From Cryomorpha ignava (lineage in GTDB: Bacteria > Bacteroidota > Bacteroidia > Flavobacteriales_F > PHOS-HE28), in the NCBI GenBank assembly GCA_040391235.1, contig JBEBYG010000006.1:52602-116601 (forward strand): 64,000 bases of DNA, in the 5' to 3' direction. Under the pieces are notes generated by a model, which did not search any database, had not been told where the DNA came from, and saw only the letters and a program-made list of their open reading frames with translations. This document shows, in pieces, positions 3,228-41,509 of this stretch (the first letter of the stretch is position 1; every line of letters starts with the position of its first letter). A program made the position numbers and the translations under genes.

Positions 3228-4760
3228 TCAGCGGAGATCACTGATCAGTGAACGGCCCGTCATTTCGGCGGGCTGTTCCATTTCCAAGAGGTCCAATAAC
3301 GTTGGGGCTACATCGGCCAAAATGCCATCTCGCACTTGAACGTGCCGGTCGGTAAGTATGATCACCGGTACCGGGTTGAGGGTATGGGCCGTATTGGGCG
3401 AGCCATCCGGGTTCACCGCCTTGTCCGCATTGCCGTGGTCTGCTATCAGGATGAATGACCAGCCCTTTGCGCGACCGGCCTCCACTACCTTCTTGGCGCA
3501 GGCATCAGTGGTCTCCACCGCCTTTACGATCGCTGGGAATACCCCGGTATGACCCACCATGTCGGGATTAGCGAAGTTCAACACCATCAATTGGGTATCC
3601 TCTTCAGCGAATGCCTGCAATGCCGCCTCGGCCACAGCTGGAGCGCTCATTTCCGGTTGCAGGTCGTAGGTGGCCACTTTGGGTGATGGAATGACGTTGC
3701 GCCGCTCCCCCGGGAATGGCTCCTCCCTGCCCCCACTGAAGAAAAAGGTGACGTGCGGATATTTCTCGGTCTCTGCCAAGCGCACTTGTTTTGCTCCCGC
3801 CCGTGAGACCACCTCACCCAGCGTCATGCGCAGGTCCTCTTTCTGAAAGATCACGTCTATCCCTTTGAACGCATGGTCGTACATGGTCATGGTTACATAG
3901 TGGAGCTGCAGGGGTTGCATATCCAGATCGGGGAATGCACGTTGGGTGAGTGCCTCGGTGATCTCGCGGCAACGATCCGTGCGGAAATTGAAACAGATGA
4001 CCACATCACCTGGTCGGATATGGGACAATGCCCGTTCATCCGTTCCAATGATGGCACAGGGCTCAATGAATTCATCGGTAATGCCCTTGGCATAGCTGGA
4101 CTCTATGGCCCAACTCGCGCTGGGGGCCTTATCGCCTGTTCCCCGTACCAACAATTCGTAGGCCTTCTTGATGCGCTCCCAGCGTTTATCGCGGTCCATG
4201 GCATAATACCTCCCACAGATGGTAGCCACCCGTGCAGGGGTCCCCATGATGTCCTGCTCCAGCTTTTGCACGGATCCGAGTCCGCTTTTAGGGTCCGTAT
4301 CGCGCCCATCGGTGAAGGCGTGGATAAAGACATCCTTCAGCCCCGCCTTTTCGGCCAGCTTGCACAAGGCAACCAAATGAGCACTCTTGGCATGTACGCC
4401 GCCATCACCGATCAGGCCCATGAGGTGAAGGCGCTTGCCCGGTGTGGCCGCCACACGGAATGCCTCTTGGAGCACAGGGTTACGCTCCAGTGAACCATCG
4501 GCTATGGCTTGGTCAATACGCACCAGGTCCTGGTACACCACGCGCCCTGCACCGATGTTCAGGTGTCCCACCTCGCTATTGCCCATTTGTCCAACCGGCA
4601 GGCCCACGTTCTCCCCGTCCGTGCGCAAGCTCGCGTGAGGGGCATGTCGCAGTAATCCGTCCATGAACGGGGTTTTTGCTTGGGCAATGGCATCTGTATC
4701 ATCGCCTGCTCCAATACCCCAACCATCCAGGATGATCAGGGCGGTTTTCTTGGTGGTCAT
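3228..4760 (-). CDS. gpmI: 2,3-bisphosphoglycerate-independent phosphoglycerate mutase
   Basis: 510 aa. The N-terminus KTALIILDGWG and the full length are consistent with iPGM. Its start overlaps the upstream histidine-kinase stop by 4 nt. Confidence 0.9.
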   Translation of the reverse strand: MTTKKTALIILDGWGIGAGDDTDAIAQAKTPFMDGLLRHAPHASLRTDGENVGLPVGQMGNSEVGHLNIGAGRVVYQDLVRIDQAIADGSLERNPVLQEAFRVAATPGKRLHLMGLIGDGGVHAKSAHLVALCKLAEKAGLKDVFIHAFTDGRDTDPKSGLGSVQKLEQDIMGTPARVATICGRYYAMDRDKRWERIKKAYELLVRGTGDKAPSASWAIESSYAKGITDEFIEPCAIIGTDERALSHIRPGDVVICFNFRTDRCREITEALTQRAFPDLDMQPLQLHYVTMTMYDHAFKGIDVIFQKEDLRMTLGEVVSRAGAKQVRLAETEKYPHVTFFFSGGREEPFPGERRNVIPSPKVATYDLQPEMSAPAVAEAALQAFAEEDTQLMVLNFANPDMVGHTGVFPAIVKAVETTDACAKKVVEAGRAKGWSFILIADHGNADKAVNPDGSPNTAHTLNPVPVIILTDRHVQVRDGILADVAPTLLDLLEMEQPAEMTGRSLISDLR

Positions 4761-5716
4761 GAGTGCTGTGGGAATATAGCTGTGAAGGTAGAACCATGGG
4801 GCATTACCGCTCGGTATTCCACCCGACCGCCCAGATCCTCCATGAGTCTACGGACGATGAAAAGCCCTAAACCTGTGCCCTTCACGTTCCGGGTGGCCTC
4901 GTTACCTCCGCGATAGAATTTACCGAACATCCGCTGCCTGTCCTCCTCCGGTATACCCGGTCCGTTATCCGTTACCTGAAGAGATACGGCAGCGTCCACC
5001 ACACTAAGCTCCACCTGCACCGTGGAACCCCCGGGTGCGTATTTACAGGCATTGCCGAGGAGGTTCCCCAGAATGGAGCGGAAGGCTATTACATCTGTGT
5101 GCAGGGTCAACGCTGGTGGCAAAAGCACATCGAGTCGATGATCCCGACCATAGGAGGATCGCGCCTCCTCCAATAGTTCCCGGGTTTCCTTTACCACGTC
5201 CACGGGCACCAGGGTGGGAGAGCCAGCATGTTCCTCCAACCGGCTGGCCAAGAGGATCTGTTCGGCCAAGCCATGCAACCGCTCCACATCGGAGCGGGCA
5301 CTGCGTGCAAGCGCTTCACGCTGCAAGGGGTCGAGACCGGGCCGTTGCAGTGTTTGCAAGTGGAGCTTCAGCGCGGCAATGGGTGTGCGCAGCTCATGGC
5401 TGGTGGCCATCAGGAAATCCCTTTGCTGGCGGGCCAAGGAAAGCTCATGTCGCAGGGTGCGGAAGGTGATCCAGAGCGACAGTAAGAGCAGTATCAGAAA
5501 GACCAGTCCTTCACCCACCACCATCATCAACGTGTGCTTGGGCAGCCGGATCGGAAGGTGAGGCACTACGCCCTCTGTGATCAACTGTTGCTGTAAAGCA
5601 AAGATGTCCCGGTCCTTGCTAAGCAATAGCCACATCCACCAAGCTGATTGCAATAGGATGTACAGGACCAAGAAGCCAAAAAGGAGCACCGGGGTGCGAG
5701 GGGCAGGGCGTGCCAT
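4757..5716 (-). CDS. Two-component sensor histidine kinase (2 TM helices, HisKA, HATPase_c)
   Basis: H-box HELRTPIAALKLH. N/G boxes NLLGNACKYAP, DNGPGIPEE, GTGLGLFIV. Two N-terminal hydrophobic helices. No response regulator is adjacent. Confidence 0.85.
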   Translation of the reverse strand: MARPAPRTPVLLFGFLVLYILLQSAWWMWLLLSKDRDIFALQQQLITEGVVPHLPIRLPKHTLMMVVGEGLVFLILLLLSLWITFRTLRHELSLARQQRDFLMATSHELRTPIAALKLHLQTLQRPGLDPLQREALARSARSDVERLHGLAEQILLASRLEEHAGSPTLVPVDVVKETRELLEEARSSYGRDHRLDVLLPPALTLHTDVIAFRSILGNLLGNACKYAPGGSTVQVELSVVDAAVSLQVTDNGPGIPEEDRQRMFGKFYRGGNEATRNVKGTGLGLFIVRRLMEDLGGRVEYRAVMPHGSTFTAIFPQHS

Positions 5717-7430: not shown

Positions 7431-8733
7431 CCTCGGCTTAGCCACGGCTTTCGCCCAAAGCGCAGGGAATTCGCCCTACAGCGCCTATGGATTTGGGGAT
7501 CTGGTGTATACCGGCCAAGTATCCCAGACGCTGATGGGAGGGACCGGCTTGGCCATTTCCGAGCCCTATAGCGTGATCATGGGGAATCCTGCCAGCTATG
7601 CTTCCATGGCCAGGCCCGTATTCGAGACAGGGGTTGCCTTGCGCTCCACCCGCAGCACTTCATCCTTGTCCAGCAGTACGCAGAAGGATGCGAATTTCCT
7701 GGGTTTCAGCATCGGCGTGCCATTTGCCAATGGCAAATGGGGATTAGCCTTGGGACTCACCCCGTTCAGCGAAGTGGAATATTCCACCACGCGCAGTTCC
7801 GCTTTCGATGGCGGAACGGTGAAGTATGACTACTCAGGTAGCGGTGGACTGGACAGGGCCTTCTTTGGTCTTGGGCGTACACTTTACTCCCAACGCTTGG
7901 ATTCCGTGGGCAACACCGGAACACGCATCACCTTGGGAGCCGATTTCAACTTCATCTTCGGAAGCATTGAGCAAACGCGAGCTGCGATCTATACCCAATC
8001 GGACGGGTTCAGCAACACGAAGGCCTTCTCTGCTCTTGTCCTGCGCGCCCCCACAGCGGACGCCAGTGTAATGTGGCAGGGCGATCTTACTCGCAAGAAG
8101 CACCGGGATGATAACAATTGGCGCTGGTCCATGGGGGCATCCGTTGGTTTGCCGACAGGCTTCAATGCCAAGTACTCCAACTTGGTCACGAGCTATATCA
8201 CTAATTCGGACATTGATAATGTGCGCGATACCATCTCTGATCAACGCAGTGTAAGGGGAAGGGTCGAGATCCCTGTGTCATTTGGCCTCGGTCTGGGTGT
8301 ACAGAATGCACATTGGGCATTTACCGCGGAGGTGCAGCAACGCGACTGGAGCGCGGTGAGTATCGACGTGCCCGGATATTCCTTGCCCGCGCCTTTGCGC
8401 AGTTCCATTACTTACGCTGCGGGCGCCAGGTACCGGCCGGGCACTGAAGGAGGCGTATTCCATAGGGCGGTCTATCGTGCAGGGCTGCGCTATGTGGAAA
8501 GCCCCCAAGAGGTACGTGGTATGGGCTTGAACAGCAGCATCGCTACTGCAGGGATCTCCTTCCCGCTCAATGCCATGCAGACAAACAGCTGGCTGCACAT
8601 TGGCGGAGAGTTCGGCCAGCGTGGATCCACGGAGAAGGGATTGGTCGAAGAGCGGTTCGTTACCCTTTGGCTCGGCGTGGCATTCACCCCATGGCGCGGG
8701 GAACGATGGTTCACGCCACCCAAGATCCAATGA
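7396..8733 (+). CDS. Outer-membrane beta-barrel protein. The N-terminus suggests a FadL/PorV-like fold, but the family is uncertain.
   Basis: Signal peptide MNRTAVLLLLTNLGLATAFAQ. The N-terminal motif SPYSAYGFGD...MGGTGLAIS...NPAS is reminiscent of FadL/OmpP1-type barrels. It is Gly/Ser/Thr/Tyr-rich with alternating amphipathic strands and a C-terminal aromatic. The start at 7396 (M6) is preferred. It overlaps the coaX 3' end. Confidence 0.6.
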   Translation: MNRTAVLLLLTNLGLATAFAQSAGNSPYSAYGFGDLVYTGQVSQTLMGGTGLAISEPYSVIMGNPASYASMARPVFETGVALRSTRSTSSLSSSTQKDANFLGFSIGVPFANGKWGLALGLTPFSEVEYSTTRSSAFDGGTVKYDYSGSGGLDRAFFGLGRTLYSQRLDSVGNTGTRITLGADFNFIFGSIEQTRAAIYTQSDGFSNTKAFSALVLRAPTADASVMWQGDLTRKKHRDDNNWRWSMGASVGLPTGFNAKYSNLVTSYITNSDIDNVRDTISDQRSVRGRVEIPVSFGLGLGVQNAHWAFTAEVQQRDWSAVSIDVPGYSLPAPLRSSITYAAGARYRPGTEGGVFHRAVYRAGLRYVESPQEVRGMGLNSSIATAGISFPLNAMQTNSWLHIGGEFGQRGSTEKGLVEERFVTLWLGVAFTPWRGERWFTPPKIQ

Positions 8734-11010: not shown

Positions 11011-13107
11011 ATGGCAGTTATTGGAAAGATCCGTGAACGTGGAACCCTCTTGGGCATTATCGTTGGCGGTGCGCTCGTATTGTTCGTGGTGGGTGATTTC
11101 ATCGGAAATCGCTCCGGTGGGCAGGATCGGAATGTGGGCAGTATTGCCGGCACGGAGATCAGCATGCAGGAGTTCTCCAACCGGGTGGATCAGCAGATCG
11201 AGCTCTACCGGCAGAACGGCACCACGGTGGACAACCAACTGCAGGAGCAAGTGCGCAACGGCGTGTGGAATGATATGCTCCGTGAGCGCACGCTGAGCGT
11301 GGAGGCCGCGGAAGCCGGCTTCGGTACTACCATCAGCCGCGAGGAGTATGACGATATCCGCTTCGGAAAAAACATATTGCCCGATTTCCGCAACAACCAG
11401 AACTTCATCGATCCGCAGACGGGACAGGTGAGCCAAGAGCAGCTGCGCAGGTATTTCAAATACGTGCAGGAGGAGAACTTCCCGTTGATGGAAATGCAAC
11501 GACGCACCTTCGTGCCGCAGCGCATACAGGCCAAATACAACGACCTGGTGAAGAAGAGCTGCTTCGTGAACAGTGCCCAGGTCCAGAACGAATGGGCGAC
11601 AAAGAACATCAAGGCCGATTTCCAATTCGTGGCACAGCGCCTGGAAACCGAACCCGATAGCCTCTACCCGGTGAGCGACACCGAACTCCGCCGCTATTTC
11701 GACTCCCATAAGAACGAACGCAAATACCGCCAGACCGAATCGCGCAGCTTTGCATACGTCCAGTTCAAGGCGATTCCTTCACAGGAAGACGTCCAGAATG
11801 CGCGCGAGGACATGATGACGCTGAAAGCGGACTTCGAGGCGGCAAGAACACCCAAGGCTGACAGTTCGTTGGTGATGGCCTATGCCGAAACGAAATCAGC
11901 AGCACCCACGGCCTATGAGCCCGGTACAGCTGACCATCTGAACGATTCCCTGATCCTGAACGCCGATACAGGCTCCGTGGTAGGACCTTTCCGCGCTGGT
12001 GGCGCATGGAAGCTGGTGAAGGTGACGGAACTGGCCGACGTGGCTGAGGCGCGCGTGCGGCACATCCTGCTGACCACACAAGGCAAGAGCCCGGAGGAGG
12101 AGCAGGTCATCAAGCAGCGTGCGGACAGCATCCTGAACGTGGTGAAGCGTGACCGCAGCAAATTCGAGGCGATGGTGACGAAATACTCCGACGACCCCGG
12201 AAGCAAGAGCACCGGCGGTGTTTACGAATGGTTCGACAAGAATCGCATGGTTCCTGAATTTACCAAGGCCAGCTTCAACGAGAAGGTCGGAAGCATCACC
12301 GTTGTGAAGACGGACTATGGCTTCCACATCGTGGAGGTATTGGGGCAGCGCACACGTAAGGAGCGCAGGGTGCTTACCATCGATCGCAAGATCGCTCCGG
12401 TGCAAGCCATGAAGGCCGCTTGGAGGGACGCGAACGAGTTCTCACTGAACCACGCCGATACGGCATCTTTCCGCAAAGGGGCTGAAGAAGCTGGACTGGC
12501 CTACGTGCCGGTTGAAGAGCTTCGCCCAGACCAACGCTTCGTACCCGGTCTCCAAGATGCGGATGAGGTAGCCCGTTGGGTGAACCGTGCCGATGCAGGT
12601 GCCAAGAGCAGCGAACCATTGACCAGCGGCGATAGCTACGTGGTCTGCTCGCTGATCAACATCCGGGAGGAAGGTGTACCCAAGCTGAACGATGTGCGCG
12701 AGAAATTCACCAAGGAAGTGCGCAACGAGATGAAGGCCGATGCGATCGCTGCCAAGATGAAGGACAAGTCCGATCTACAGGCATTGGCGCAGGAGTTGGG
12801 CACCTCTGTCCAGAACTCGGGCAATATGGCATTCAGCGCAAACACCCTGCCTGGCGGATATAGCGATGTAAAAGTGATCGGAAGCATTTTCGGCTTGGAG
12901 AACGGTGCCACCAGCGCTCCGTTGAAAGGAGATCAAGCCGTGTATGTAGCCCACATGAATACATTAACCCCTGCCGGGGAAATGCCGGAAGGAGCCGAGG
13001 ATGTGAAGCAACTGACCGATCGTGTGCGTAGCCGCGCAACAGGCCAGGCTTTCAATGCCTTGAAGGAAGCAGCCAACGTGACGGACCACCGCTCGAGGTT
13101 CTTCTGA
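11011..13107 (+). CDS. Periplasmic chaperone / peptidyl-prolyl cis-trans isomerase, PpiD/SurA-like
   Basis: N-terminal TM anchor followed by a SurA-N-like region. An internal parvulin rotamase segment reads ARVRHILLTT...GFHIVEV. 698 aa. Confidence 0.75.
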   Translation: MAVIGKIRERGTLLGIIVGGALVLFVVGDFIGNRSGGQDRNVGSIAGTEISMQEFSNRVDQQIELYRQNGTTVDNQLQEQVRNGVWNDMLRERTLSVEAAEAGFGTTISREEYDDIRFGKNILPDFRNNQNFIDPQTGQVSQEQLRRYFKYVQEENFPLMEMQRRTFVPQRIQAKYNDLVKKSCFVNSAQVQNEWATKNIKADFQFVAQRLETEPDSLYPVSDTELRRYFDSHKNERKYRQTESRSFAYVQFKAIPSQEDVQNAREDMMTLKADFEAARTPKADSSLVMAYAETKSAAPTAYEPGTADHLNDSLILNADTGSVVGPFRAGGAWKLVKVTELADVAEARVRHILLTTQGKSPEEEQVIKQRADSILNVVKRDRSKFEAMVTKYSDDPGSKSTGGVYEWFDKNRMVPEFTKASFNEKVGSITVVKTDYGFHIVEVLGQRTRKERRVLTIDRKIAPVQAMKAAWRDANEFSLNHADTASFRKGAEEAGLAYVPVEELRPDQRFVPGLQDADEVARWVNRADAGAKSSEPLTSGDSYVVCSLINIREEGVPKLNDVREKFTKEVRNEMKADAIAAKMKDKSDLQALAQELGTSVQNSGNMAFSANTLPGGYSDVKVIGSIFGLENGATSAPLKGDQAVYVAHMNTLTPAGEMPEGAEDVKQLTDRVRSRATGQAFNALKEAANVTDHRSRFF

Positions 13108-22114: not shown

Positions 22115-23506
22115 TCAGTAGGGCGTGTTCTGTGGATCCCAGTTGCACCAGCCTTGCGTCCAATCCTCCGTGCCGAAGGCTCCCAGGAAGTTCACCTGCT
22201 GGAAGAAGCCATCCGTCAATGCCGGGTTGGAGAAGGCCGCGCCGCTGAGCAAGGGAGAACCACCGTTCGGAAGAAGATCAGGTGCATTCAGGGAGAAGGG
22301 TGTGTTCAGACCAAGTTCGCTGATGTTGGCTAACACACTATTGCCCCAACCGGAAGTATTGAACCAAGCGGATGCATCGAACGTGCTTCCGGAAGCTACG
22401 GCCAGCGGGGTGCTACATCCTGCGATGATCGAGGTGCGGAATTGCAGGTCGTTACTCGTTGCAGCGCCTTCGGTGAGGCTGCCATCAAGGAGCAATCCTG
22501 TAGGATATCCGGCCAGCACGGTGTTAAAGGCGTTCAGGCGGCTGTTGCGACGAATGTGTGCTGCACGCTTGAATTGTCCGTTCATGCTTCCCGTTACGGT
22601 GCCGGGCCCAAGGATGCTGACATTGCTGAAGACCGGCCGGGTCAGGGGTGAGGCTGAAGATCCACTGGCATCGTTATCGCTTTCGAAACCATTGCTACCG
22701 CTCTGGTCCGCGATGTTCGGATCGCGCAAGGCGAGCGCGAACTGCACCTTCCCGCGATAGCCGTTGTCGGTATCGAAATCATCGTCCCAACCGCGGAATG
22801 CCACGATGTGCTTCAGGTTCACCGCACCGCCGAACATCTCGTAGCTATCGTCACCACTATAGCTCACCTGGATATGGTCCAAGGTGGTGCCGCTTCCGAC
22901 CGCGCCGAGGGTAAGGCCATTGATCTCTTGGTCAGGCTGAAAGGCTATGCCCGGGAACTCGATCCGGACGTAGCGCATGGTCCCGCTGTTGTCCGCGTCG
23001 TTGGGGTTGCTTCCGCCCCCATAGTAGGCATCCGGGCCTCCTTCGATACGTGCTTCTCCGCCGGGCTGGTTGTTGCCTGCGCGACCGCAAATGATCAGCC
23101 CGCCCCAATCTCCGTAATCACGGCTACCGGCAGGCTGGTTGCTGGTGAACACAATGGGCTGGCTGGCGCTTCCCACGGCATTGATCTTCGCTCCGCGCTT
23201 AATGATCAACGTACCCTTGCTGTTCTTGTCCCCTTTGATGATGGTGCCGGGCTCAATGGTGAGCGTTGCACCGTCCTCCACGTACACGAAGCTCTGGAGC
23301 AACCACTGCTTGTCGCTGCTGAAAGTGAAGTTGGCGGCTGTGCTGCCTTCCACCTTGTTCGTGTTGTTGCCCATATCCGTGATGGTAAAGCTGGATGTGG
23401 TCTCCGGTAGGGGAGCCAATTCTTCCTTGTCCTTTTTGCACGCGGTCAGTGCGAGCAATGTGCCACCCGCGAGTGCGAGGAGGTGTGTCCTGTTCAAGAT
23501 CTTCAT
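22115..23506 (-). CDS. Lipoprotein of unknown function encoded downstream of a TonB-dependent receptor
   Basis: Signal peptide with a lipobox-like LALTAC. Gly/Asn/Ser/Thr-rich beta-type sequence. The ATG at 23506 is preferred over the GTG at 23533. Confidence 0.65.
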   Translation of the reverse strand: MKILNRTHLLALAGGTLLALTACKKDKEELAPLPETTSSFTITDMGNNTNKVEGSTAANFTFSSDKQWLLQSFVYVEDGATLTIEPGTIIKGDKNSKGTLIIKRGAKINAVGSASQPIVFTSNQPAGSRDYGDWGGLIICGRAGNNQPGGEARIEGGPDAYYGGGSNPNDADNSGTMRYVRIEFPGIAFQPDQEINGLTLGAVGSGTTLDHIQVSYSGDDSYEMFGGAVNLKHIVAFRGWDDDFDTDNGYRGKVQFALALRDPNIADQSGSNGFESDNDASGSSASPLTRPVFSNVSILGPGTVTGSMNGQFKRAAHIRRNSRLNAFNTVLAGYPTGLLLDGSLTEGAATSNDLQFRTSIIAGCSTPLAVASGSTFDASAWFNTSGWGNSVLANISELGLNTPFSLNAPDLLPNGGSPLLSGAAFSNPALTDGFFQQVNFLGAFGTEDWTQGWCNWDPQNTPY

Positions 23507-23732
23507 GTGTCCTTTTGTTGTTGCTTTTTTCACGCTACAAAAGGACGGGCGGTAGTTTGCGTGGATATGAAGGCGATCTTATGTGATCGTTGAATGGAGT
23601 GAACGTTGCGTTAAGCCTGCGTGCGGAGGTATAGTGGAAGGAGTCGGCCGCCGTTCTGCCCATCGGCCGAAACGGCTTTCGGAAGTGTAACGCCATGGAC
23701 CTTAATTCGGGATGGTTACTTCCTGAAGCACT

Positions 23733-27610: not shown

Positions 27611-27630
27611 AGCTAACAACTCAGTTAGCT
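27611..27630. promoter_or_regulatory. 7-bp inverted repeat 30 bp upstream of the first T9SS-cargo paralog
   Basis: AGCTAAC-aactca-GTTAGCT. Confidence 0.3.
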
Positions 27631-27659
27631 TTGAAGGTGGCAATTCCTATTCTATCCGA

Positions 27660-29198
27660 ATGAGGTCATCATTTCAATTTTTCTTGGCCTTGTGCTCGAT
27701 CACCATGTTCGGTGCTGCGCAAGCACAAACCATCTTCGGCAAGGAATATCCTGTCGGTTACAACAACATTAGCTGGGTGCGCGGGATCGGCATTCACACC
27801 GGTGGGGTTATGGTGAGCGCACGTCCCACGGAGAGTACAACAAACACCTTCGCAAGCTCGATCCTCACAACGAATGAAGTGGGTGATGTGGTGAGTTTGT
27901 TCCGTTATGAGCATGGCCTTTCCGATCTGATCACATGCATGGAACGCCTGTCGAACGGGGATGTCATCGTGGGGTCTTCTTCAGGTCAACATTTCGGAGG
28001 TATCGGTTCCTTTGATATGATGGTAAAGAGGCTGGGGCCGGACGGGAGTGTGATCTGGGCAAAGGCATTGGGGGCGGCCATGGGGAGTACGATCCTGTAC
28101 GATATGGTTGAGCCGGTGCCCGGAGCGCTCATCGGGATCGCTTCGTTAGAAGATTCCTCCGGCGCAGGTTACCCGTTGGTGTTCCGCCTGGATGATACTG
28201 GTGGCATCGTTTGGTCCCACAGGCTTCTTTCCACTGGGGCAGCCATGCGGTGCATGGCCATCACGGCGGACCAAGCCGGGGGCGTGGTCGTTTCCGGCCG
28301 CTATGCGGATACCTCGAATGGTATGAAGATGCTAACGATCCGAATGGACCTGAATGGGGGAGTGGATTGGGCGCACTGGTACGGGAGTACTGGATTTATC
28401 GAGGTGCGGGAGGTATTGAATGATCCGAACGGCGGCTTGGCCATTGTGGGGGACTTGGGCAATACCGGTGGTGGTGGTGTGATCCGCACGGATGCATCAG
28501 GGACCCCATATTCCATGTTCCTTTGGGGTTGGGAGATCGAGGCAGGCCATTGTTTCGCCGACCGCTCGCTCCTATTGGTCACGCAGGTGCCGGGAGGAAA
28601 TACTGGCTTCGCCCGCATCGATACCAGCAATGTGATCCAATGGTCCGCCTTGCTGGAGGCCACCTCGTGGGGAGCGCTTGTGCCCCTCTATGGAAGCTCG
28701 CGCTTTGCCTATGTATCTTCCAAGATGTTCAGCGACGTCACGATCACCACCTTGACGGACCAGCTCGATGCCTGCGACGGTGATACCCTGTCCACCTCTG
28801 TGGTGCCGACATGGGAGCTCCATGGATCTGCCGTGGTAACGACCGCTCCGCTATCCTTGCTCACACAGGATATCCCTATCACGCTCGTGCCATTGAATAC
28901 AAGCATGGTGGTGCAATGCACGGAATACGTAGGTGTGGCGGAGAACGAAGCGCCCGAAGTACAGCCAATGAAATGTGGTTTTGCAATGGGGGATCATGTG
29001 CTCTCGATCACCGGCCTTGACCGAGATCGCTTGCCTGTTGTGGTGAGCGATGTGATGGGGCGCCGATGGTCTGTTGGTAAAGCTGTACGCGCTGGTGATG
29101 GGGCGGTTCAGTTGACACTGCCAAGCACGCTGACTCCGGGGTATTACATCGCCTCGGCTGGGGCGAAGGCATGCACCTTCGTGATCGCTGCGTGGTAG
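27660..29198 (+). CDS. Secreted repeat (beta-propeller-like) protein with a T9SS type-A C-terminal sorting domain, paralog A
   Basis: Signal peptide. Roughly 50-aa repeats of the form GG(V/L)xx(V/S)G...RxDxxGxxxW(A/S)xxxG (delta-60/propeller-like). The C-terminus ...LTLPSTLTPGYYIASAGAKACTFVIAAW fits the type-A CTD. Confidence 0.75.
   Translation: MRSSFQFFLALCSITMFGAAQAQTIFGKEYPVGYNNISWVRGIGIHTGGVMVSARPTESTTNTFASSILTTNEVGDVVSLFRYEHGLSDLITCMERLSNGDVIVGSSSGQHFGGIGSFDMMVKRLGPDGSVIWAKALGAAMGSTILYDMVEPVPGALIGIASLEDSSGAGYPLVFRLDDTGGIVWSHRLLSTGAAMRCMAITADQAGGVVVSGRYADTSNGMKMLTIRMDLNGGVDWAHWYGSTGFIEVREVLNDPNGGLAIVGDLGNTGGGGVIRTDASGTPYSMFLWGWEIEAGHCFADRSLLLVTQVPGGNTGFARIDTSNVIQWSALLEATSWGALVPLYGSSRFAYVSSKMFSDVTITTLTDQLDACDGDTLSTSVVPTWELHGSAVVTTAPLSLLTQDIPITLVPLNTSMVVQCTEYVGVAENEAPEVQPMKCGFAMGDHVLSITGLDRDRLPVVVSDVMGRRWSVGKAVRAGDGAVQLTLPSTLTPGYYIASAGAKACTFVIAAW
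28887..29198 (+). repeat. Direct repeat copy 1: a ~310-bp 3' segment shared by the tandem paralogs at over 90% nucleotide identity
   Basis: Aligns to 30598–30909. An internal ~100-bp stretch (GATCATGTGCTCTCGATCACCGGCCTTGACCGAGATCGCTTGCCTGTTGTGGTGAGCGATGTGATGGGGCGCCGATGG) is identical. Confidence 0.8.
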
Positions 29199-29352
29199 CT
29201 CAGAAGTTTGGGCAAGAAGTGTAGTGAGGCTTTCAGAAGGGATCCGCTGAAGTGGCTCCGAAGTCGTTTGTGCCCAATGGCCGCAGGCATTTTCAGGCCA
29301 CCATGCCATAGCTTTGGTCAAACCACCGAACACAGGTAGTTGAAGCCATCGG

Positions 29353-30909
29353 ATGAAAGCACATCTACACCATCTCGTATTGGCGCTGTTGGCGATCATC
29401 ATTGGCAGCCCCTGTCAAGCGCAAAACATTTTCGGTAAGGAGTATCCGGTGGGACTCAACAGCGTCACTTGGGTGCGCGGTGTCGGTCTGTCTACTGGCG
29501 GTTTGATGGTGAGCGCACGCCCTACCGAAGCCACGGCGAACACCCTCGCAAGCTCGATCCTGACAACGGATGAGGTAGGTAATGTGGTGAGCTTCTCCCG
29601 ATATGAACATGGATATTCGGATATGATCACCTGCATGGAACGGATGTCGAACGAGGATATCATCGTGGGTTCAGCTTCCAGGGATCATTTCGTGCCGGAC
29701 ACTGATATGTTGATCAAAAGACTGGACCCCGAAGGAAATGTGGTCTGGTGCAAGGCCATGCGTCCGTTTGGTTCCCCTTGCAGCCTTTTTGATGTTGTGG
29801 AACCGATTCCCGGCGTCCTGATCGGCCTGGGTTATGTGGAGAATGGAATGGGTCAGCCATTGGTTTTCCGTTTCGATGATATGGGGAACGTGGCTTGGTC
29901 CCGCCAACTTGTTCCAACAGGAGGTCGGATGAAATGCTCAAGCATCGCTGCAGACCCGGCCGGTGGCGTGATCGTTTCTGGCGGTTATGTAGATACACTG
30001 AACGACTCCAAGATGGTGGCGGTCCATGTGGACATGAATGGGAATGTCGATTGGGCACACTGGTATGGGACCGGGAATTACAGTGAGGGCGAGGCTACGC
30101 TGATTGATCCGAACGGGGGATTGGCCATAGTAGGTCGGTTGGGGATCACAGGAGGGAACTCCGGAGGCTTGCACTATTCTGGTGGAGTCGTACGTACGAA
30201 TGCATCGGGGGTCCCTTATTCCATGCTCCGTTGGGGATCGGAGGTGAAAGCTGGTCATGGCTTTACCGATGGGTCGCTCTTGATCTACTCAGCGGTACCC
30301 AGTGGAAGTATTGAGTTCATCCGAATGGATACTTTGAACACGATCCAGTGGTCCTTGTTGCTTGAGGCCACGTCCTGGGGCGAAGTGGTTCCTCTTTACG
30401 GAAGTTCGCGTTTCGCCTATGCGTCATCAAAATTGGTCAGTGATATCACCATCACCACGTTGACCGAACAGCTGCAGGCATGTGATGGAAATGCACTGAC
30501 CAACTCCCCGGTAGCGTCTACATGGGAAAGCCACGCACCACTATCGGTTACAGCGGTCCCCATGCCTTTGAATAGCGTGGATGTGCCCATCACCGTCGTG
30601 CCGTTGAACACGAGCATGGTGGTGCAGTGCACGGAGTACGTAGGTGTAGCGGAGAATGAAGCGCCCGAAGTACAGCCAATGAAATGTGGTTTTGCCATAG
30701 CGGATCATGTGCTCTCGATCACCGGCCTTGACCGAGATCGCTTGCCTGTTGTGGTGAGCGATGTGATGGGGCGCCGATGGCCTGTTGGTCAAGCTGTACG
30801 CGCTGGTGATGGGGCCGTTCAGTTGACACTGCCAAGCACGCTGACTCCGGGGTGTTACATCGCCTCGGCGGGGGGTAAGGCGTGCACTTTCGTGATCCAT
30901 ACGTGGTAG
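29353..30909 (+). CDS. Secreted repeat (beta-propeller-like) protein with a T9SS type-A C-terminal sorting domain, paralog B
   Basis: About 60% identical to paralog A over the body. It is nearly identical over the last ~100 aa, including the CTD. Confidence 0.75.
   Translation: MKAHLHHLVLALLAIIIGSPCQAQNIFGKEYPVGLNSVTWVRGVGLSTGGLMVSARPTEATANTLASSILTTDEVGNVVSFSRYEHGYSDMITCMERMSNEDIIVGSASRDHFVPDTDMLIKRLDPEGNVVWCKAMRPFGSPCSLFDVVEPIPGVLIGLGYVENGMGQPLVFRFDDMGNVAWSRQLVPTGGRMKCSSIAADPAGGVIVSGGYVDTLNDSKMVAVHVDMNGNVDWAHWYGTGNYSEGEATLIDPNGGLAIVGRLGITGGNSGGLHYSGGVVRTNASGVPYSMLRWGSEVKAGHGFTDGSLLIYSAVPSGSIEFIRMDTLNTIQWSLLLEATSWGEVVPLYGSSRFAYASSKLVSDITITTLTEQLQACDGNALTNSPVASTWESHAPLSVTAVPMPLNSVDVPITVVPLNTSMVVQCTEYVGVAENEAPEVQPMKCGFAIADHVLSITGLDRDRLPVVVSDVMGRRWPVGQAVRAGDGAVQLTLPSTLTPGCYIASAGGKACTFVIHTW
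30598..30909 (+). repeat. Direct repeat copy 2 (3' end of paralog B)
   Basis: See copy 1. Confidence 0.8.
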
Positions 30910-30961
30910 CTTGGGGACCATTGCACATTCACCGTAGCGCAGTGTGTTCACCCTTGCACGA

Positions 30962-32263
30962 TCAAGGGGATGCCTCCACCTGAAAGGACGTCGGTCTCCA
31001 TTTTTCCAACAACCGATCCAACGTGATCGCCGCATAGAGGATCACTACCGGCATTATCGGAACCGTGTAGCGCAGGCGTGCCACCACGGCCATGTAGGTC
31101 AAGCACAGGATGACGACGCTCAGCACCAGCGGCCAGCCACGTCGCGGGGCATACCGCAGGCCGACCAGCGCGAGCAGGAGAAGCATGGCTTGTTCCGCCG
31201 CCATCAGATAGTCCATGAGGCCGATCGGTTTTCCGTAGGCGGAGTAAACTCCCCAATTGAACCAAAGTGGAAGGAAGCGGTAGGCGCTCAATAGAAGGTA
31301 AGTGCCCTTGTGTGCCTTGATGATCGCCATGCCCTCCTCCTTGTAGATGCGATCCACTTGGGCCTCATTCTCATGTCCGGTCAACTCGGGATGCCGGGCC
31401 AGTGCTGCGTAGGCCACCGGTCGCGCTTCATCCTCGTTGATGTAGCGATACGGATCGTTGCTCGCCACTTGATGGCTGTGCCGGAGTATGTTGTAGCCGG
31501 TCAAAGTGGACCCCACGACCACTTGGTGGAAGACACGCTCGTTGCGGACGAGCCAAGGCAGCATGGTCACGAACCAGGCCATGGCGAAAACGGCTGCGGG
31601 ACGCACCAAATTGAATGACCGAGCACCGGTCTTCCACGAATGCCAGAGCGCAGCAAGGCCAAGCGGCAAAGCGGTGGCGAGAAGTGCGGAACGGGAAAGC
31701 ACGGCAATGGCCATGAAGAAGCCGGCCAACGCCCACTGCTTCGTGCTACCGGTGCGCCAAGCCCGCAAGTAGTAAAATGACCCGAGCGTTACTGTCAGTG
31801 TGGCCACCAGATCCCCGGCGATCTCCGGCAATACAAGTAATGCGGGGAGATACAGCACCCAAAGAGCGGCAGCGATCAGTGCTGCTTGCTCACCGGCCAT
31901 TTCTCGGACCAGTCGATGGATCATCAGGATGATCAGGAGCTGCAAAAGGAGCTGGACCATGCCCGCGGACCAGAGTGAACCATGAAGCGCTGCAACCAAG
32001 GCGAAGAGATACACCGGTACCGGTTCACGCATAGCGGTAGCATCATTACCTGGACCGCAGAAAGGGAAATAGATCGGGAGGCACTCCACGAAACCCTGCC
32101 CATCAGCCACGTTCAAGATCGCGGGCCACCAAGTATCAGTCTGGTCGTCCACTATGGAAGGAGGGCTGCTGAACAAGCGCGCCAGTCCTAGCACAACGCC
32201 AAGGGATAAGATCAACCACAGAAGCCGAGGCCTGCGTGATACAGAACTGGGAATGGAGACCAT
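30962..32263 (-). CDS. Glycosyltransferase family 39 (ArnT/PMT-like) polytopic membrane protein
   Basis: More than 10 TM helices. N-terminal loop motif and overall ArnT-like topology. 433 aa. Confidence 0.65.
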   Translation of the reverse strand: MVSIPSSVSRRPRLLWLILSLGVVLGLARLFSSPPSIVDDQTDTWWPAILNVADGQGFVECLPIYFPFCGPGNDATAMREPVPVYLFALVAALHGSLWSAGMVQLLLQLLIILMIHRLVREMAGEQAALIAAALWVLYLPALLVLPEIAGDLVATLTVTLGSFYYLRAWRTGSTKQWALAGFFMAIAVLSRSALLATALPLGLAALWHSWKTGARSFNLVRPAAVFAMAWFVTMLPWLVRNERVFHQVVVGSTLTGYNILRHSHQVASNDPYRYINEDEARPVAYAALARHPELTGHENEAQVDRIYKEEGMAIIKAHKGTYLLLSAYRFLPLWFNWGVYSAYGKPIGLMDYLMAAEQAMLLLLALVGLRYAPRRGWPLVLSVVILCLTYMAVVARLRYTVPIMPVVILYAAITLDRLLEKWRPTSFQVEASP

Positions 32264-32438
32264 GGTGGTGGATCGGAGGTGTTAACAAGGAACAATGTAG
32301 CTCTATGCACATGCGGAAAGGAACTGTCTGCCGTTGCCGTAAATATTTTTCTGAAAGGCGATCCACCGCCCCGGAGCATCGAAGGTTCGACGACCACCCA
32401 TGACCAAGAGGACCATTCGCCTGCGCTGAGCTCCGCCA

Positions 32439-33080
32439 TCAATTCCTGTCCCGAACCAACAAATTCCGTTGCTCGAAGACCGATGCAGTCGTTCGATCCT
32501 TCAAAAGGTCGATCAATAGAAAAACAGCTGCATTGAGTAAAATGCCCAACGGTATGCCGGTCCAGAGGTCCATGGTAGTTGGCACCACCGTGGAGCGGAT
32601 CAAGTGGATGAAGTAGATCACACAAGGCAAGAAACAGAACCAGCTGGTGAGCATGCCGGCATTGCGAAATGTTCTTCCCTTGATGTTGAACAGGAAGGTG
32701 TGCGCGATGATGTTTCCCGCAGAGACCATCATTGTAGCGATACCGAGCCAGATGGCGCGCTCACCCAAAAGGGCGGCGAGAAGATAGAAGAGCCAGCCCA
32801 TGCCGACATTGACGATCAGGGCGCTGTTGCTGTTCAAAGGATAACGGTCCGGCATGCTGCTTTTGAACATCACGGAATTGAGCATGCCCGGGAAGGTGCC
32901 TACGATCCGGTATTCCTCCAACTGGTGGAAGAACAAGGACACCAAGCTGAGCCACATGAGCATTCCGTAGGGCGAGAGCGTTTCCCTGAAGAAGAAGACA
33001 AAGGCCAAGGTGAAGAGGGAGAGGATCCCTCCGAGATCGTACCAGTGTTTCCTCAGTAGGTCCATTGCGCTGTGATCCAC
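32439..33080 (-). CDS. HXXEE-domain membrane protein
   Basis: HQLEE motif within a multi-TM 213-aa protein. Confidence 0.7.
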   Translation of the reverse strand: MDHSAMDLLRKHWYDLGGILSLFTLAFVFFFRETLSPYGMLMWLSLVSLFFHQLEEYRIVGTFPGMLNSVMFKSSMPDRYPLNSNSALIVNVGMGWLFYLLAALLGERAIWLGIATMMVSAGNIIAHTFLFNIKGRTFRNAGMLTSWFCFLPCVIYFIHLIRSTVVPTTMDLWTGIPLGILLNAAVFLLIDLLKDRTTASVFEQRNLLVRDRN

Positions 33081-33174
33081 GCCCGGGAATGATCCCGAAC
33101 GACCAGTACTTGCTGTTAGGCAGAAAGGTAGGTTGATCGATCAAGGTCTGACTGGGGATGGCCTTGCAAAAAAC

Positions 33175-39268: not shown

Positions 39269-41509
39269 CTAATCCTTCACCAAACGCAGCGTCTCCACTT
39301 TGTTCGTCGTGGCGATTTGCACAAGGTAGACTCCGGACTTCAGGCCAGATATATCCAAGATGTTGCTGGTGCCGGAAAGCACTTCCTGCCGCACAATGCG
39401 TCCTTGCACATCGGTGAGCGTGAGCGTGGCAGGTGCATTGTCCAAGCGTTCGATGTGGACCCTTTCACTTACCGGATTGGGGACCAAGCGCGTGGTTCCG
39501 CTTTCCATGGAAGCTATGCCGGTATGGATCACTTGGAAGGGTGCGGAAGTGGCCGAAACACAACCCAGCGCATCGGTTACGACTACGGTGTAAGCCCCTT
39601 CTTCCGTGGCTTCGATGCAGGGTGTGTTGCCTACCGGAAGCGGATCGCCATTGTGATACCACTGCGCGTTCCCGGTGGTGTTCGTGCAGAGTGTTTCGCC
39701 GCTGGAGGTGATGAGCGGGATGGCCGCGATGCTCGGGCAGGCCACACGAGCGCGGTAGATGTCTCCCCAGCGGCCCACGGCGATGATGACGCCATCCACG
39801 ATGGTGGCATCGCCGATCTGTGCGTTGACAATATTCGGTAGGATGGGGCTCCAGTTGATGCCGCCATCGGTGCTGCGTTCGGTCTGCCCGCCGGAGCTTA
39901 CGGCGTAGCCCGTGTCGGGGTCGGTGAAGAAGATGCTTCGGGTGCTTAGTGATGTGCCGCCCATTTGGATCCAGGTGTCGCCGCCGTCGATGGTGCGGTA
40001 GATCCGAGTCCAGCCCAGGCTATCGTTGAGGAAGAAGATGGTGTGGCCACCGCTGGTGCCGGTCATTGCCTGCCAGGTAAGCCCGCCGTCCATGGTGCGG
40101 TAGTCGTCGCCGTATTCGCCAACGGCATAGCCCTGTTGGTTGTTGACGAACCAGAGGTCGCTGATGGTGATGTTGCCTACATCGAGGACGCGTGTCCAGG
40201 TGGCACCGGCGTTGGTGCTGCGGTAGATGCCGCCGTACACCGCGCCGCCGCCCACGAGGTAGGTGTTGGCATCCAAGGTCCATGTGCAGCGGATGGCCAC
40301 GGTGGGGCCGTTGGCGTTGTTGCGTGTGGCGAAGCCGTCGGTGGTGCGGGCGAAGGCGCCGTTGCTTCCGCCCAAGCATCCGTCGCCGCTCGCGATAAGA
40401 TGTACGCCCAGGCCGCCGTTTCCGGCGTTTACCCATGTGCGCCCCCCGTCGGTGGTGCGCAACAGGCCGTTTTCAAAGCCACCGGCGGTCAGGCTGCCCA
40501 CGGCCACGCCGACCAGGTCATTCTGGAAAGACACTTTGTTGAGCACGGTGTGGTAGGTGCCCATGCGCAGTAGTTGCCACGTCGCGCCAAAGTCCACGGT
40601 GCCATAGATGCGGCCATCGGTACCGGTGAAGCCCACGCCTTCCGGGCTCAGCGTAATGCTCTGGTGCAGGGTGGTGCCTGTGCCTACCGTCTGTGCTGCC
40701 CATGTGGCCCCGGCATCGGTGCTGCGCAGGATGCTTCCACCGTTGCCGGCGGCGAGCATCACGTTCCCTTGCTTGGTGAGCCCGAGCAAGGTTTGCGTGA
40801 CGCCGGAGCTGACCGGCACCCACGTGTCACCGCCATCCGCTGTGCGCAGGATGTTGCCGCTGTTGCCCACCACCACGCCGGTGAGCGCATCGCTGAAGTG
40901 GAGCATACGCGAGCCGATCGGTACCGCCGCCGCAGTGGGCTGCCAAGTGAGGCCACCATCGTTGCTGCGGATCACGCCCACGCCGTATGCACAGGCATAG
41001 GCAATATCCGCCGAGGGCATGGAAAGTTCGGTGATGGAGTAGCTGCTGCCGATGCCACTAGTGGTAAGTGTCCAGCTGTCGCCACCATCGGTGCTACGGT
41101 AGATGCGGCCGGCATCGGTGCCGATAAGCCCCAGGGTATTGTTGGCGAACGCGACGCTGCGCAACGTGCCGTACGCACCCGTGCTGGTGGTGTAGTTCTC
41201 GAAGCCGTCCGTGCTGCGGTAGATACTTCCACTTCCGCCCACCACGATGCCGCGCTGTTCATCCCACATGTGCAGCGCATTCGGCGTGTTCACCGAGAGC
41301 TGGTTCATGCGTTCCCATGTGTGGCCACCATCGCGGGTGCGCAGGATCGCGGGTACGGCATTGTTGTCCAGCGCATAGCCAAGGGTGGCGTTCATCATCT
41401 GCACAGCGGGGAATTTGCTGCGCGACTTGATGGCCGTGGTGAGCTCCCATTGCTGGGCGTGAATAGCGGTAAATGAGGCGAAGAGCGCGAGGGTAAGGGC
41501 TTTTTTCAT
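39269..41509 (-). CDS. T9SS type-A sorting-domain protein with multiple BNR/Ycf48-like repeats (beta-propeller)
   Basis: Signal peptide. More than 10 copies of xRSTDGGxTW-type motifs. The C-terminus LVPNPVSERVHIE...LSGTSNILDISGLKSGVYLVQIATTNKVETLRLVKD is a canonical type-A CTD. Confidence 0.85.
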   Translation of the reverse strand: MKKALTLALFASFTAIHAQQWELTTAIKSRSKFPAVQMMNATLGYALDNNAVPAILRTRDGGHTWERMNQLSVNTPNALHMWDEQRGIVVGGSGSIYRSTDGFENYTTSTGAYGTLRSVAFANNTLGLIGTDAGRIYRSTDGGDSWTLTTSGIGSSYSITELSMPSADIAYACAYGVGVIRSNDGGLTWQPTAAAVPIGSRMLHFSDALTGVVVGNSGNILRTADGGDTWVPVSSGVTQTLLGLTKQGNVMLAAGNGGSILRSTDAGATWAAQTVGTGTTLHQSITLSPEGVGFTGTDGRIYGTVDFGATWQLLRMGTYHTVLNKVSFQNDLVGVAVGSLTAGGFENGLLRTTDGGRTWVNAGNGGLGVHLIASGDGCLGGSNGAFARTTDGFATRNNANGPTVAIRCTWTLDANTYLVGGGAVYGGIYRSTNAGATWTRVLDVGNITISDLWFVNNQQGYAVGEYGDDYRTMDGGLTWQAMTGTSGGHTIFFLNDSLGWTRIYRTIDGGDTWIQMGGTSLSTRSIFFTDPDTGYAVSSGGQTERSTDGGINWSPILPNIVNAQIGDATIVDGVIIAVGRWGDIYRARVACPSIAAIPLITSSGETLCTNTTGNAQWYHNGDPLPVGNTPCIEATEEGAYTVVVTDALGCVSATSAPFQVIHTGIASMESGTTRLVPNPVSERVHIERLDNAPATLTLTDVQGRIVRQEVLSGTSNILDISGLKSGVYLVQIATTNKVETLRLVKD

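Follow-up and report, generated by a model that had tools for sequence, protein, structure and literature searches.

Probable recombination at a conserved junction has given one of two tandem beta-propeller genes the C-terminal domain type of its neighbour

Two tandem genes, referred to here as A and B, lie in a stretch of 64,000 nucleotides (nt) assigned to Cryomorpha ignava (assembly GCA_040391235.1, contig JBEBYG010000006.1, positions 52,602 to 116,601). The whole of this stretch, which has a G+C content of 57%, is called the window in what follows. The genes are on the same strand, with a spacer of 154 nt between them, and each encodes a probable beta-propeller body followed by a linker and a small C-terminal domain, together termed the tail. 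Gene B was found to be a mosaic, in that its body belongs to its own lineage and its tail is of the type that belongs to A. This state was very probably reached by recombination at a conserved junction, which put an A-type linker and C-terminal domain onto B, apparently in two layers, the younger of them from within this genome.

Divergence of the bodies and the tails

Over their bodies, A and B are 66% identical in nucleotides and 62% in amino acids (aa), with a synonymous divergence (dS) of 1.49 and a non-synonymous divergence (dN) of 0.275 in a codon alignment. Over the last ~280-310 nt the identity rises to 93% (nt) and 91% (aa); across codon columns 431-524 dS is 0.14 and dN 0.045, and in the core columns 441-500 dS is about 0.03. 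The dS of the tail is thus more than 10-fold lower than that of the body, and third codon positions differ at 52% in the body and at 11% in the tail (Fisher p = 3e-14). The same region stands out as a direct repeat (28868-29167 and 30579-30878, 93% identical), and blastn gave 91.9% identity over 333 nt, with the similarity ending 2 nt past the stop codon; blastn within the window found no repeat between A and B in the upstream region and the spacer. When the variable sites were permuted in 20,000 replicates, the longest identical run was 44 nt and the sparsest 276-nt interval held 48 differences, as compared to 79 nt and 15 differences in the actual pair. The initial annotation of this DNA, which had been struck by divergent bodies with near-identical 3' ends, was correct in this respect; the ~100-bp stretch that it described as identical to the base shrinks to the run of 79 nt. 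The last 102 codons (~306 nt) hold 22 differing sites, 13 synonymous and 9 non-synonymous by the Nei-Gojobori method.

Only eight close homologs of A and B exist among 5.8 billion clusters. The loci compared with the window (W) were the contigs of these eight, two loci from Flavobacteriales metagenome-assembled genomes (MAGs) and one locus reached through a neighbouring PMT_2 gene. Loci of relatives are numbered L001 to L014 and gene copies are named after them, W_A and W_B being those of the window. When the assembly collection was searched for an exact match to protein A, no record was returned, and a scan of metagenome contigs matched 127 pattern stretches, 0 of which encoded a relative. 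The tandem pair is present in the window and in L002, L003, L004, L005 and L008, and L001 has one gene; a single, syntenic copy in L006, L007, L011 and L012 (39-44% aa identity) provides the outgroups. The bodies of the A orthologs L002_A, L005_A, L004_A and L008_A are 86-97% identical to A in nucleotides.

The native state of the tails can be seen in L002 and L003, the relatives in which both are visible. There, the A and B tails are 54-57% identical in nucleotides and 40-43% in amino acids, which is below the identity of their bodies, and the dS between the paralogs is 1.61 for the body and 3.4 for the tail within L002, and 1.18 and 1.99 within L003. In every comparison of orthologous pairs the tail was the fastest-evolving and least conserved region, with a dN/dS ratio (omega) of 0.23-0.39 between orthologs. 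A fast-evolving tail, with native versions that are only 40-43% identical, means that protein-level constraint cannot explain the 91% identity in the window. The A-type and B-type tails are more alike than either is to the outgroup tails (29-35%), and are therefore both native descendants of the duplication. A single copy in the outgroups, divergent tails as the native state in the pair-bearing L002 and L003, and the dS contrast together support the earlier proposal of a gene conversion or 3' module swap limited to the linker and the C-terminal sorting-type domain. Concerted evolution, which had been offered as another reading of the same pattern, is not a family-wide process, as L002 and L003 retain A and B tails at 54% nt identity.

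The breakpoint in gene B and two apparent layers

In nucleotides, W_B is 96% identical to L002_B and 66% to W_A over the body, and over the tail the figures are 54% for L002_B and 93% for W_A. Among 527 informative sites, 386 of the 407 to the left of the break are B-like and 114 of the 120 to the right are W_A-like. The break is placed between codon columns 429 and 431 (between nt 30630 and 30631), with a maximum chi-squared of 392.6 and a permutation p<1e-4. Directly before it lies a junction that encodes VPLNTSMVVQC in both paralogs of every lineage, and in the structural model this point coincides with the start of a disordered linker (residues 416-433) with a predicted local distance difference test (pLDDT) score <50. 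The module that was swapped consists of this linker and a seven-strand immunoglobulin (Ig)-like domain at the extreme C-terminus (pLDDT 76 in a tail-only model).

The shared segment had been placed from 28887 and 30598 onward, and its identity is indeed high, but the exchanged tract begins later, at 28920 and 30631. The first ~33-50 nt of the segment are alike in A and B because the junction motif is conserved in both; over columns 1-54 of the tail alignment W_B has 0/54 differences to L002_B and 11/54 to W_A. The junction stretch, where exact identity extends over ~14 nt, is the homology used by the recombination and lies outside the exchanged tract.

To the right of the break there appear to be two layers. 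Eight variants, in alignment columns 195-289, are private to W_A and W_B among the A-type tails, which argues for an exchange within this genome; L008_A and L008_B have no such shared variants. The dS of this tract, 0.10, compares with 0.12-0.25 between the window and L002, so that the conversion, called recent in the initial annotation, is recent only in a relative sense. In the last 39 nt W_B differs from W_A at 7 sites, as against 5 in the preceding 144 nt, and W_B and L008_B have in common the last codons and the 8 nt that follow the stop, including the post-stop sites CTTGGGGA. The recent tract thus has its 5' end in the conserved junction and its 3' end inside older A-type sequence, and the older layer ends at 8 nt past the stop.

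Mosaics in other lineages

The single gene of L001 has an A-type body (86-89% nt identity) and a B-type tail (86% to L002_B), with a break at codon columns 432-434, 2-3 codons from that of the window (p<1e-4). Such a fusion or deletion is what unequal crossing-over of A with B should yield. The L008 locus aligns collinearly with the window (94%), and in it, too, PMT_2 follows downstream. Through the linker and the first strand (...KLTCGQVGAERMLSITGLD) the B gene of L008 retains B-type sequence, with 2/96 differences to L002_B, and it becomes A-type only from ~95 nt 3' of the W_B break, onward to the stop. This A-type part is ~13% different from every sampled A tail, that of its own genome included, and has L003/L004-like states (RGSMP). 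After the L008_B stop come about 45 nt that resemble an A-type downstream flank, with 18/58 differences to the L004_A flank as opposed to 38/53 to the B flank. Counted together, at least three independent mosaics have their breaks within ~100 nt of the junction, two of them at the junction itself.

In L008, a 1-nt deletion in a G run (reverse complement ~8601-8607) splits B into calls of 192 aa and 326 aa (4154-5134 and 5131-5709). The split gene, with its tail that is chimeric within the domain, is either a pseudogene or an assembly error.

Proposed history and alternatives

In the history that we favour, a single ancestral gene, encoding a Sec-exported beta-propeller protein that ended in an Ig-like domain of the sorting type, would have been duplicated in tandem in this Flavobacteriales clade, after which copies A and B would have diverged, fastest in the tail. 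In the window lineage, homologous recombination, presumably RecA-type gene conversion, would then have replaced the native linker and C-terminal domain of B with A-type sequence. The 5' crossover would lie in the ...SMVVQC codons, which form the one well-conserved island towards the 3' end and mark the border of the folded body and the disordered linker, and the hybrid protein would therefore keep intact domains. The older layer, common to L008 and linked to the presence of PMT_2 in place of a 304-aa gene, would have replaced the 3' end of B through the stop and a few bases more. The younger, an A-B exchange of about 240 nt within this genome (30631-30870), would be the source of the near identity.

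Several observations weigh against this history. The A-type 3' end of B adjoins DNA with no homology to the B flank of L001-L003, and homology to these loci resumes only at the HXXEE or Mfd gene; an older layer that ends in non-homologous DNA is not textbook conversion with homology on both sides. Over columns 55-125 of the tail alignment, W_B has 4-5 states that match L002_A or L005_A and not W_A or L008_A, so the donor may not have been exactly today's W_A, or A itself may later have been overwritten. Between W_A and L008_A there is 1 difference among the 54 sites of columns 1-54 and none over columns 55-150, after which the two are 13% different. The relationships among the window, L008, L002 and L005 are themselves mosaic, and the order of events is uncertain to that extent. 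Finally, the window and all relatives are metagenome assemblies.

The strongest competitor is an import in one step, by which the A-type C-terminal domain on B may have come along with the PMT_2 segment from a related lineage that had an A-type gene beside PMT_2. One crossover would lie inside the tail and the other in HXXEE/Mfd, and no A-B exchange within the genome would be needed for this first event. PMT_2 replaces the 304-aa gene of L001-L003 only in the window and L008, the two proteins have no similarity to each other, and the synteny break therefore abuts the stop codon of B. An import would also fit the distance of the A-type part of L008_B from all sampled A tails, its L003/L004-like states, the A-type flank past its stop and the lack of private sites shared by L008_A and L008_B. 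In addition, the more distant L009 and L010 have PMT_2 at this locus (in L013 and L014 it is elsewhere in the genome). However, the donor arrangement, an A-type gene adjoining PMT_2, was not found in any fetched locus, and the import leaves unexplained both the eight variants private to W_A and W_B and a window tract that reaches 95 nt further 5' than in L008, so that a second exchange, within the genome, is still required. For the older layer, an import is no worse an explanation than conversion within the genome; as an account of the mosaic it is quite possible, and we lean slightly against it. No compositional anomaly that would mark a foreign origin was detected around PMT_2.

It is very improbable that an assembler joined the body of B to a copy of the A tail: repeats can mislead assemblers and all of these sequences are derived from metagenomes, but the two tails differ at 22 sites over the last 102 codons and are therefore not one sequence used twice. 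Moreover, exact identity at the junction extends over only ~14 nt, much shorter than the k-mers typically used by assemblers, and L008, from a different run, also carries an A-type 3' end on B beside PMT_2. A conserved element at the nucleotide level in the 3' ends, such as a structured RNA, an antisense gene or a regulatory site, has even less to commend it. Long antisense open reading frames (ORFs) do run over both tails on the minus strand (28851-29402 and 30541-31035), yet stops interrupt them in L003_A, in L004_A and in every B-type tail; Rfam gave no match at E<=1, no terminator-like signal exceeded the shuffled expectation, B orthologs exist without the sequence, and the substitution pattern follows the sense reading frame. 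Least credible of all, to the point of being negligible, is strong purifying selection on the secretion signal with no recombination. The tail is indeed coding and constrained, as its omega and several residues invariant in the family attest, but such selection is refuted by the collapse of dS in the tail (0.10-0.14 vs 1.5) together with that of third-position differences, and by the divergent tails of the relatives, which are 54% identical in nucleotides in L002 and L003 and are the least conserved region in every orthologous comparison.

Some further features of the tails were recorded. Between W_A and L008_A, window positions 28586-29185 contain 3 differing sites in 450 nt and then 24 in the next 150 nt, a sharp switch within the C-terminal domain that implies either one more exchange or a donor allele that was not sampled. 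In the part that corresponds to 28920-28990, several states of W_B match L002_A instead of W_A. The window-specific tail variants might have come from the older layer by conversion from B to A; this possibility was rejected, since W_A is no closer to L008_B (25/144) than L008_A is (21/144).

Table 1. Coordinates of features at the A-B locus (window numbering)
Feature	Position	Strand	Description
TAnnTTTG box upstream of A, TAGCTTTG	27626..27633	+	overlaps right arm of inverted repeat
Gene A	27660..29198	+	ORF, 512 aa; signal peptide, beta-propeller, small beta unit, linker, C-terminal Ig-like domain
Predicted Sec signal peptide of A	27660..27725	+	MRSSFQFFLALCSITMFGAAQA, then Q; read from sequence; Gln at +1
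Beta-propeller body of A	27735..28757	+	modelled; residues ~26-366; 28 strands, 7 blades of ~48 aa; pLDDT mostly 80-95
Junction in A	28887..28919	+	codes VPLNTSMVVQC; conserved in A and B lineages; end of folded body; proposed recombination hotspot
Donor tract in A	28920..29159	+	linker and most of C-terminal domain; 11 differences in 240 nt to W_B; dS 0.104
C-terminal Ig-like domain of A	28959..29195	+	residues 434-512, seven strands; probable divergent type-A-like sorting domain
TAnnTTTG box upstream of B	29309..29316	+	identical TAGCTTTG box; within spacer block invariant across lineages
Gene B	29353..30909	+	518 aa; mosaic paralog, B-type body and A-type tail
Junction in B	30598..30630	+	codes VPLNTSMVVQC; native B sequence; 5' crossover at 3' edge
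Recent converted tract in B	30631..30870	+	A-type, window lineage only; 114/120 informative sites W_A-like
C-terminal Ig-like domain of B	30670..30906	+	residues 440-518; A-type origin; 91% aa identity to A tail, 43% to native B-type tail of P0004 (L002_B)
Older A-type layer in B	30871..30917	+	last ~12 codons, stop and 8 nt downstream; common to L008_B; homology to other relatives ends there
PMT_2 / GT39-type glycosyltransferase gene	30962..32263	-	Pfam PF13231, E 7e-13; convergent with B

The tail as a putative sorting signal

The initial annotation took the tail for a type-A sorting domain of a type IX secretion system (T9SS). Fold, position and a transitive profile link speak for such a role, but no curated Pfam or NCBIfam model matches, and the tail is best described as a likely divergent, type-A-like T9SS signal. 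Models of the type-A C-terminal domain (CTD; PF18962 and TIGR04183) gave no match at E<=1 on the full proteins or at E<=10 on the isolated tails, and none in 12 family members, and those of the type-B CTD (PF13585 and TIGR04131) matched neither the full A and B proteins nor their isolated tails. The searches themselves performed as they should: the window protein 39269-41509 (minus strand) matched PF18962 with an E of 1.9e-10, and the window proteins 102-1580 and 1598-3220 were detected as type-B positive controls. These last two form a second tandem pair of T9SS cargo genes, with SprB repeats and CHU_C type-B CTDs. No 3' homogenisation was seen in that pair, where the C-terminal domains are ~27% identical in amino acids and have no nucleotide similarity.

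A profile of the family tail, searched against 1.84e9 representatives, reached a fragment (P0122) with an E of 3.6e-4; this fragment scores 28.0 bits against Pfam Por_Secre_tail, where the cut-off is 27. An hhalign comparison of the family tail with P0122 gave a probability of 96% in the expected motif register, for a pair that was picked after the search. The C-terminal domain of an unrelated cargo protein with a BNR/sortilin-type propeller (P0123) matched the whole profile with an E of 8.9e-4, and here hhalign gave 97.5%. With the type-A CTD of the window itself, hhalign gave a probability of 0.7%, in the right register. The tail profile found only chance matches among Protein Data Bank (PDB) sequences, and the 64-kb window has no other copy of the tail domain.

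Type-A CTDs are seven-strand Ig-like domains with motifs A-E, of which motifs D and E are conserved, including a Lys in the last ~13 residues, and CTDs beyond types A and B (type C) are known (PMC10202324). The tails of A and B resemble them in their position at the extreme C-terminus, their length of ~80 aa, their seven-strand Ig-like sandwich and the predicted signal peptide at the other end of the protein. The family profile matches a PF18962-positive sequence, and D-x-x-G-R (SDVMGRR) and P-G-x-Y, which are invariant or nearly so in the family, align with CTD motifs. The context also fits a Bacteroidota host with T9SS, as the relatives are Flavobacteriales MAGs and the window encodes recognised cargo of the PF18962 and CHU_C kinds. 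The family differs from type-A CTDs in that none of the 12 members matches a curated hidden Markov model (HMM), in having three invariant cysteines, and in the Lys of motif E, an important residue close to the C-terminus: A-type tails have it (Lys503), B-type tails have a Gln in its place, and the outgroups lack it. The two tail types end in ...K-A-C-T-F-V-I-x-x-W (A) and ...Q-S-C-T-F-L-V-S-x-R (B).

The cysteines C372, C420, C439 and C505 (A numbering) are invariant across the family, and Cys420 closes the junction motif. To our knowledge, conserved cysteines are unusual for type-A CTDs. Cys439, in the first strand, and Cys505, in the last, are both inside the swapped domain, and a possible disulfide between them would therefore travel with the module.

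The exported beta-propeller body

Both proteins have a hydrophobic N-terminus that ends in AQA before a Gln, and A22 and Q23 are invariant in the family. The Gln at +1 fits the Bacteroidetes 'Q-rule' (PMC5837995). An AlphaFold model of A, built on the family alignment with an overall pLDDT of 78, has seven four-stranded blades (26-366), a small beta unit (380-415), the disordered linker and a C-terminal beta domain (434-512), and the body is thus modelled as a seven-bladed beta-propeller. Foldseek against the PDB returned propellers as all of its top matches, the best being CylK (7roo, E 4e-9, TM 0.54). The repeats had previously been counted as ~50-aa units of delta-60 or beta-propeller type; the propeller, with blades of ~48 aa, agrees with this, and the delta-60 assignment found no HMM confirmation, as the delta-60 models in the Pfam and NCBIfam scans matched neither protein.

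The nearest described groups are the SBBP and delta-60 proteins (PF06739, PF17164 and TIGR02608), with which A and B share the repeat length, the seven-bladed model and weak SBBP matches, and for the most distant sequence homolog (P0009) the source gives the label of a delta-60 repeat protein. In contrast to these groups, the matches of A and B all fall far below the curated cut-offs: SBBP reaches 15.7 bits, on B only, where 20.5 are needed, and Lepto_SBBP_lipo 21-27 bits, where the cut-off is 400.

Related systems and significance

The process at work here is probably gene conversion or unequal crossing-over of the ordinary kind, between two tandem paralogs. A and B share with other such cases the segment-specific discordance, the collapse of dS in a bounded tract and a retained donor copy, as well as breakpoints in a local island of high identity and the deletion or fusion product seen in L001. 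They differ in that the tract is limited to one structural module and that the DNA which borders the older layer at the stop is non-homologous, where flanking homology would be usual.

In theme, the closest precedent is the reshuffling of T9SS cargo in Porphyromonas gingivalis, where the rgpA, kgp and hagA genes show a combinatorial modularity of adhesin domains, the catalytic and C-terminal groupings are incongruent, and gene conversion has been invoked (PMC5266723). In both cases C-terminal modules of T9SS-type cargo genes are reshuffled by homologous recombination (PMC5266723). The units exchanged in that host-associated pathogen are large adhesin modules (CADs, DUF2436 domains), and the terminal CTD (IPR026444) is conserved. 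The unit in A and B, unlike these, is the linker with a terminal domain of ~80 aa that escapes the curated CTD models, in two small beta-propeller proteins of environmental Flavobacteriales. Distinctive of the present case are the breakpoints at base-level resolution, their recurrence at a domain border in three lineages and a terminal domain that the CTD models miss.

A more speculative reading, which we think rather unlikely but worth stating, is that the VPLNTSMVVQC junction and linker form a recurrent joint for the swapping of sorting domains, that the two tail types specify different fates, and that the tail is an undetected subclass of CTD. If so, the tail types could set the fate of the protein after secretion (release as opposed to surface attachment, or the use of different shuttle proteins), and a swap would re-target it. 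The locus offers a natural experiment in modularity, in which one propeller body is found with either of two ~40% identical tails and the joints are at the domain border; L008 possibly adds a third state, a propeller body with a chimeric tail. Should the tail be a T9SS signal, this would suggest that such signals can replace one another on cargo proteins in nature, and would point to a one-step route to a changed fate of a cargo protein. A family of C-terminal domains missed by the Pfam and NCBIfam T9SS models also matters for the counting of T9SS cargo in environmental Flavobacteriales.

Upstream elements and the spacer

A 7-bp inverted repeat (27611-27617 and 27624-27630), 30 nt before the ATG of A, had been pointed out as peculiar to that gene. 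It does exist, intact only in the window and L008, and is probably incidental, as it overlaps a conserved box that B has as well. This TAG[C/A]TTTG box, conserved in all lineages, has the form TAnnTTTG, which we take to be the -7-type promoter element of Bacteroidota. With TAGCTTTG upstream of both genes, A and B are each predicted to have their own promoter.

The spacer (29199-29352, especially ~29262-29320) is more conserved across lineages than the adjacent coding tails, and the window, L002-L005 and L008 have an invariant block of ~50 nt with the TAGCTTTG box at its end. Such conservation points to a regulatory element for B beyond a bare promoter.

Neighbouring genes

The pair is preceded by genes for a TonB-dependent receptor and a LOG-family protein and followed by PMT_2, an HXXEE protein and Mfd. 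The slot between B and Mfd (window 30910-33174, with equivalents in L001-L003, L007 and L008) is hypervariable: it holds PMT_2 and HXXEE in the window and L008, the 304-aa gene and HXXEE in L002, the 304-aa gene only in L001, a 291-aa gene and RhuM in L003, and a PCMD-like 462-aa gene in L007. In L009 (GCA_039915245.1, 1396-1649), a Flavobacteriales MAG with ~70% nt identity to the window in this part, there is no propeller-family gene, and LOG adjoins PMT_2 across a spacer of 254 nt.

Further upstream, L008 carries a Transposase_mut (IS256-like) gene (11280-12527) between the TonB-dependent receptor and a beta-helix gene, which is absent from the window at ~23798. Adjoining the receptor in the window is a 472-aa ORF (22115-23533, minus strand) with no Pfam match at E<=0.001, the counterparts of which in L008, L009 and L011 are recorded with PF28492 (Beta_helix_4).

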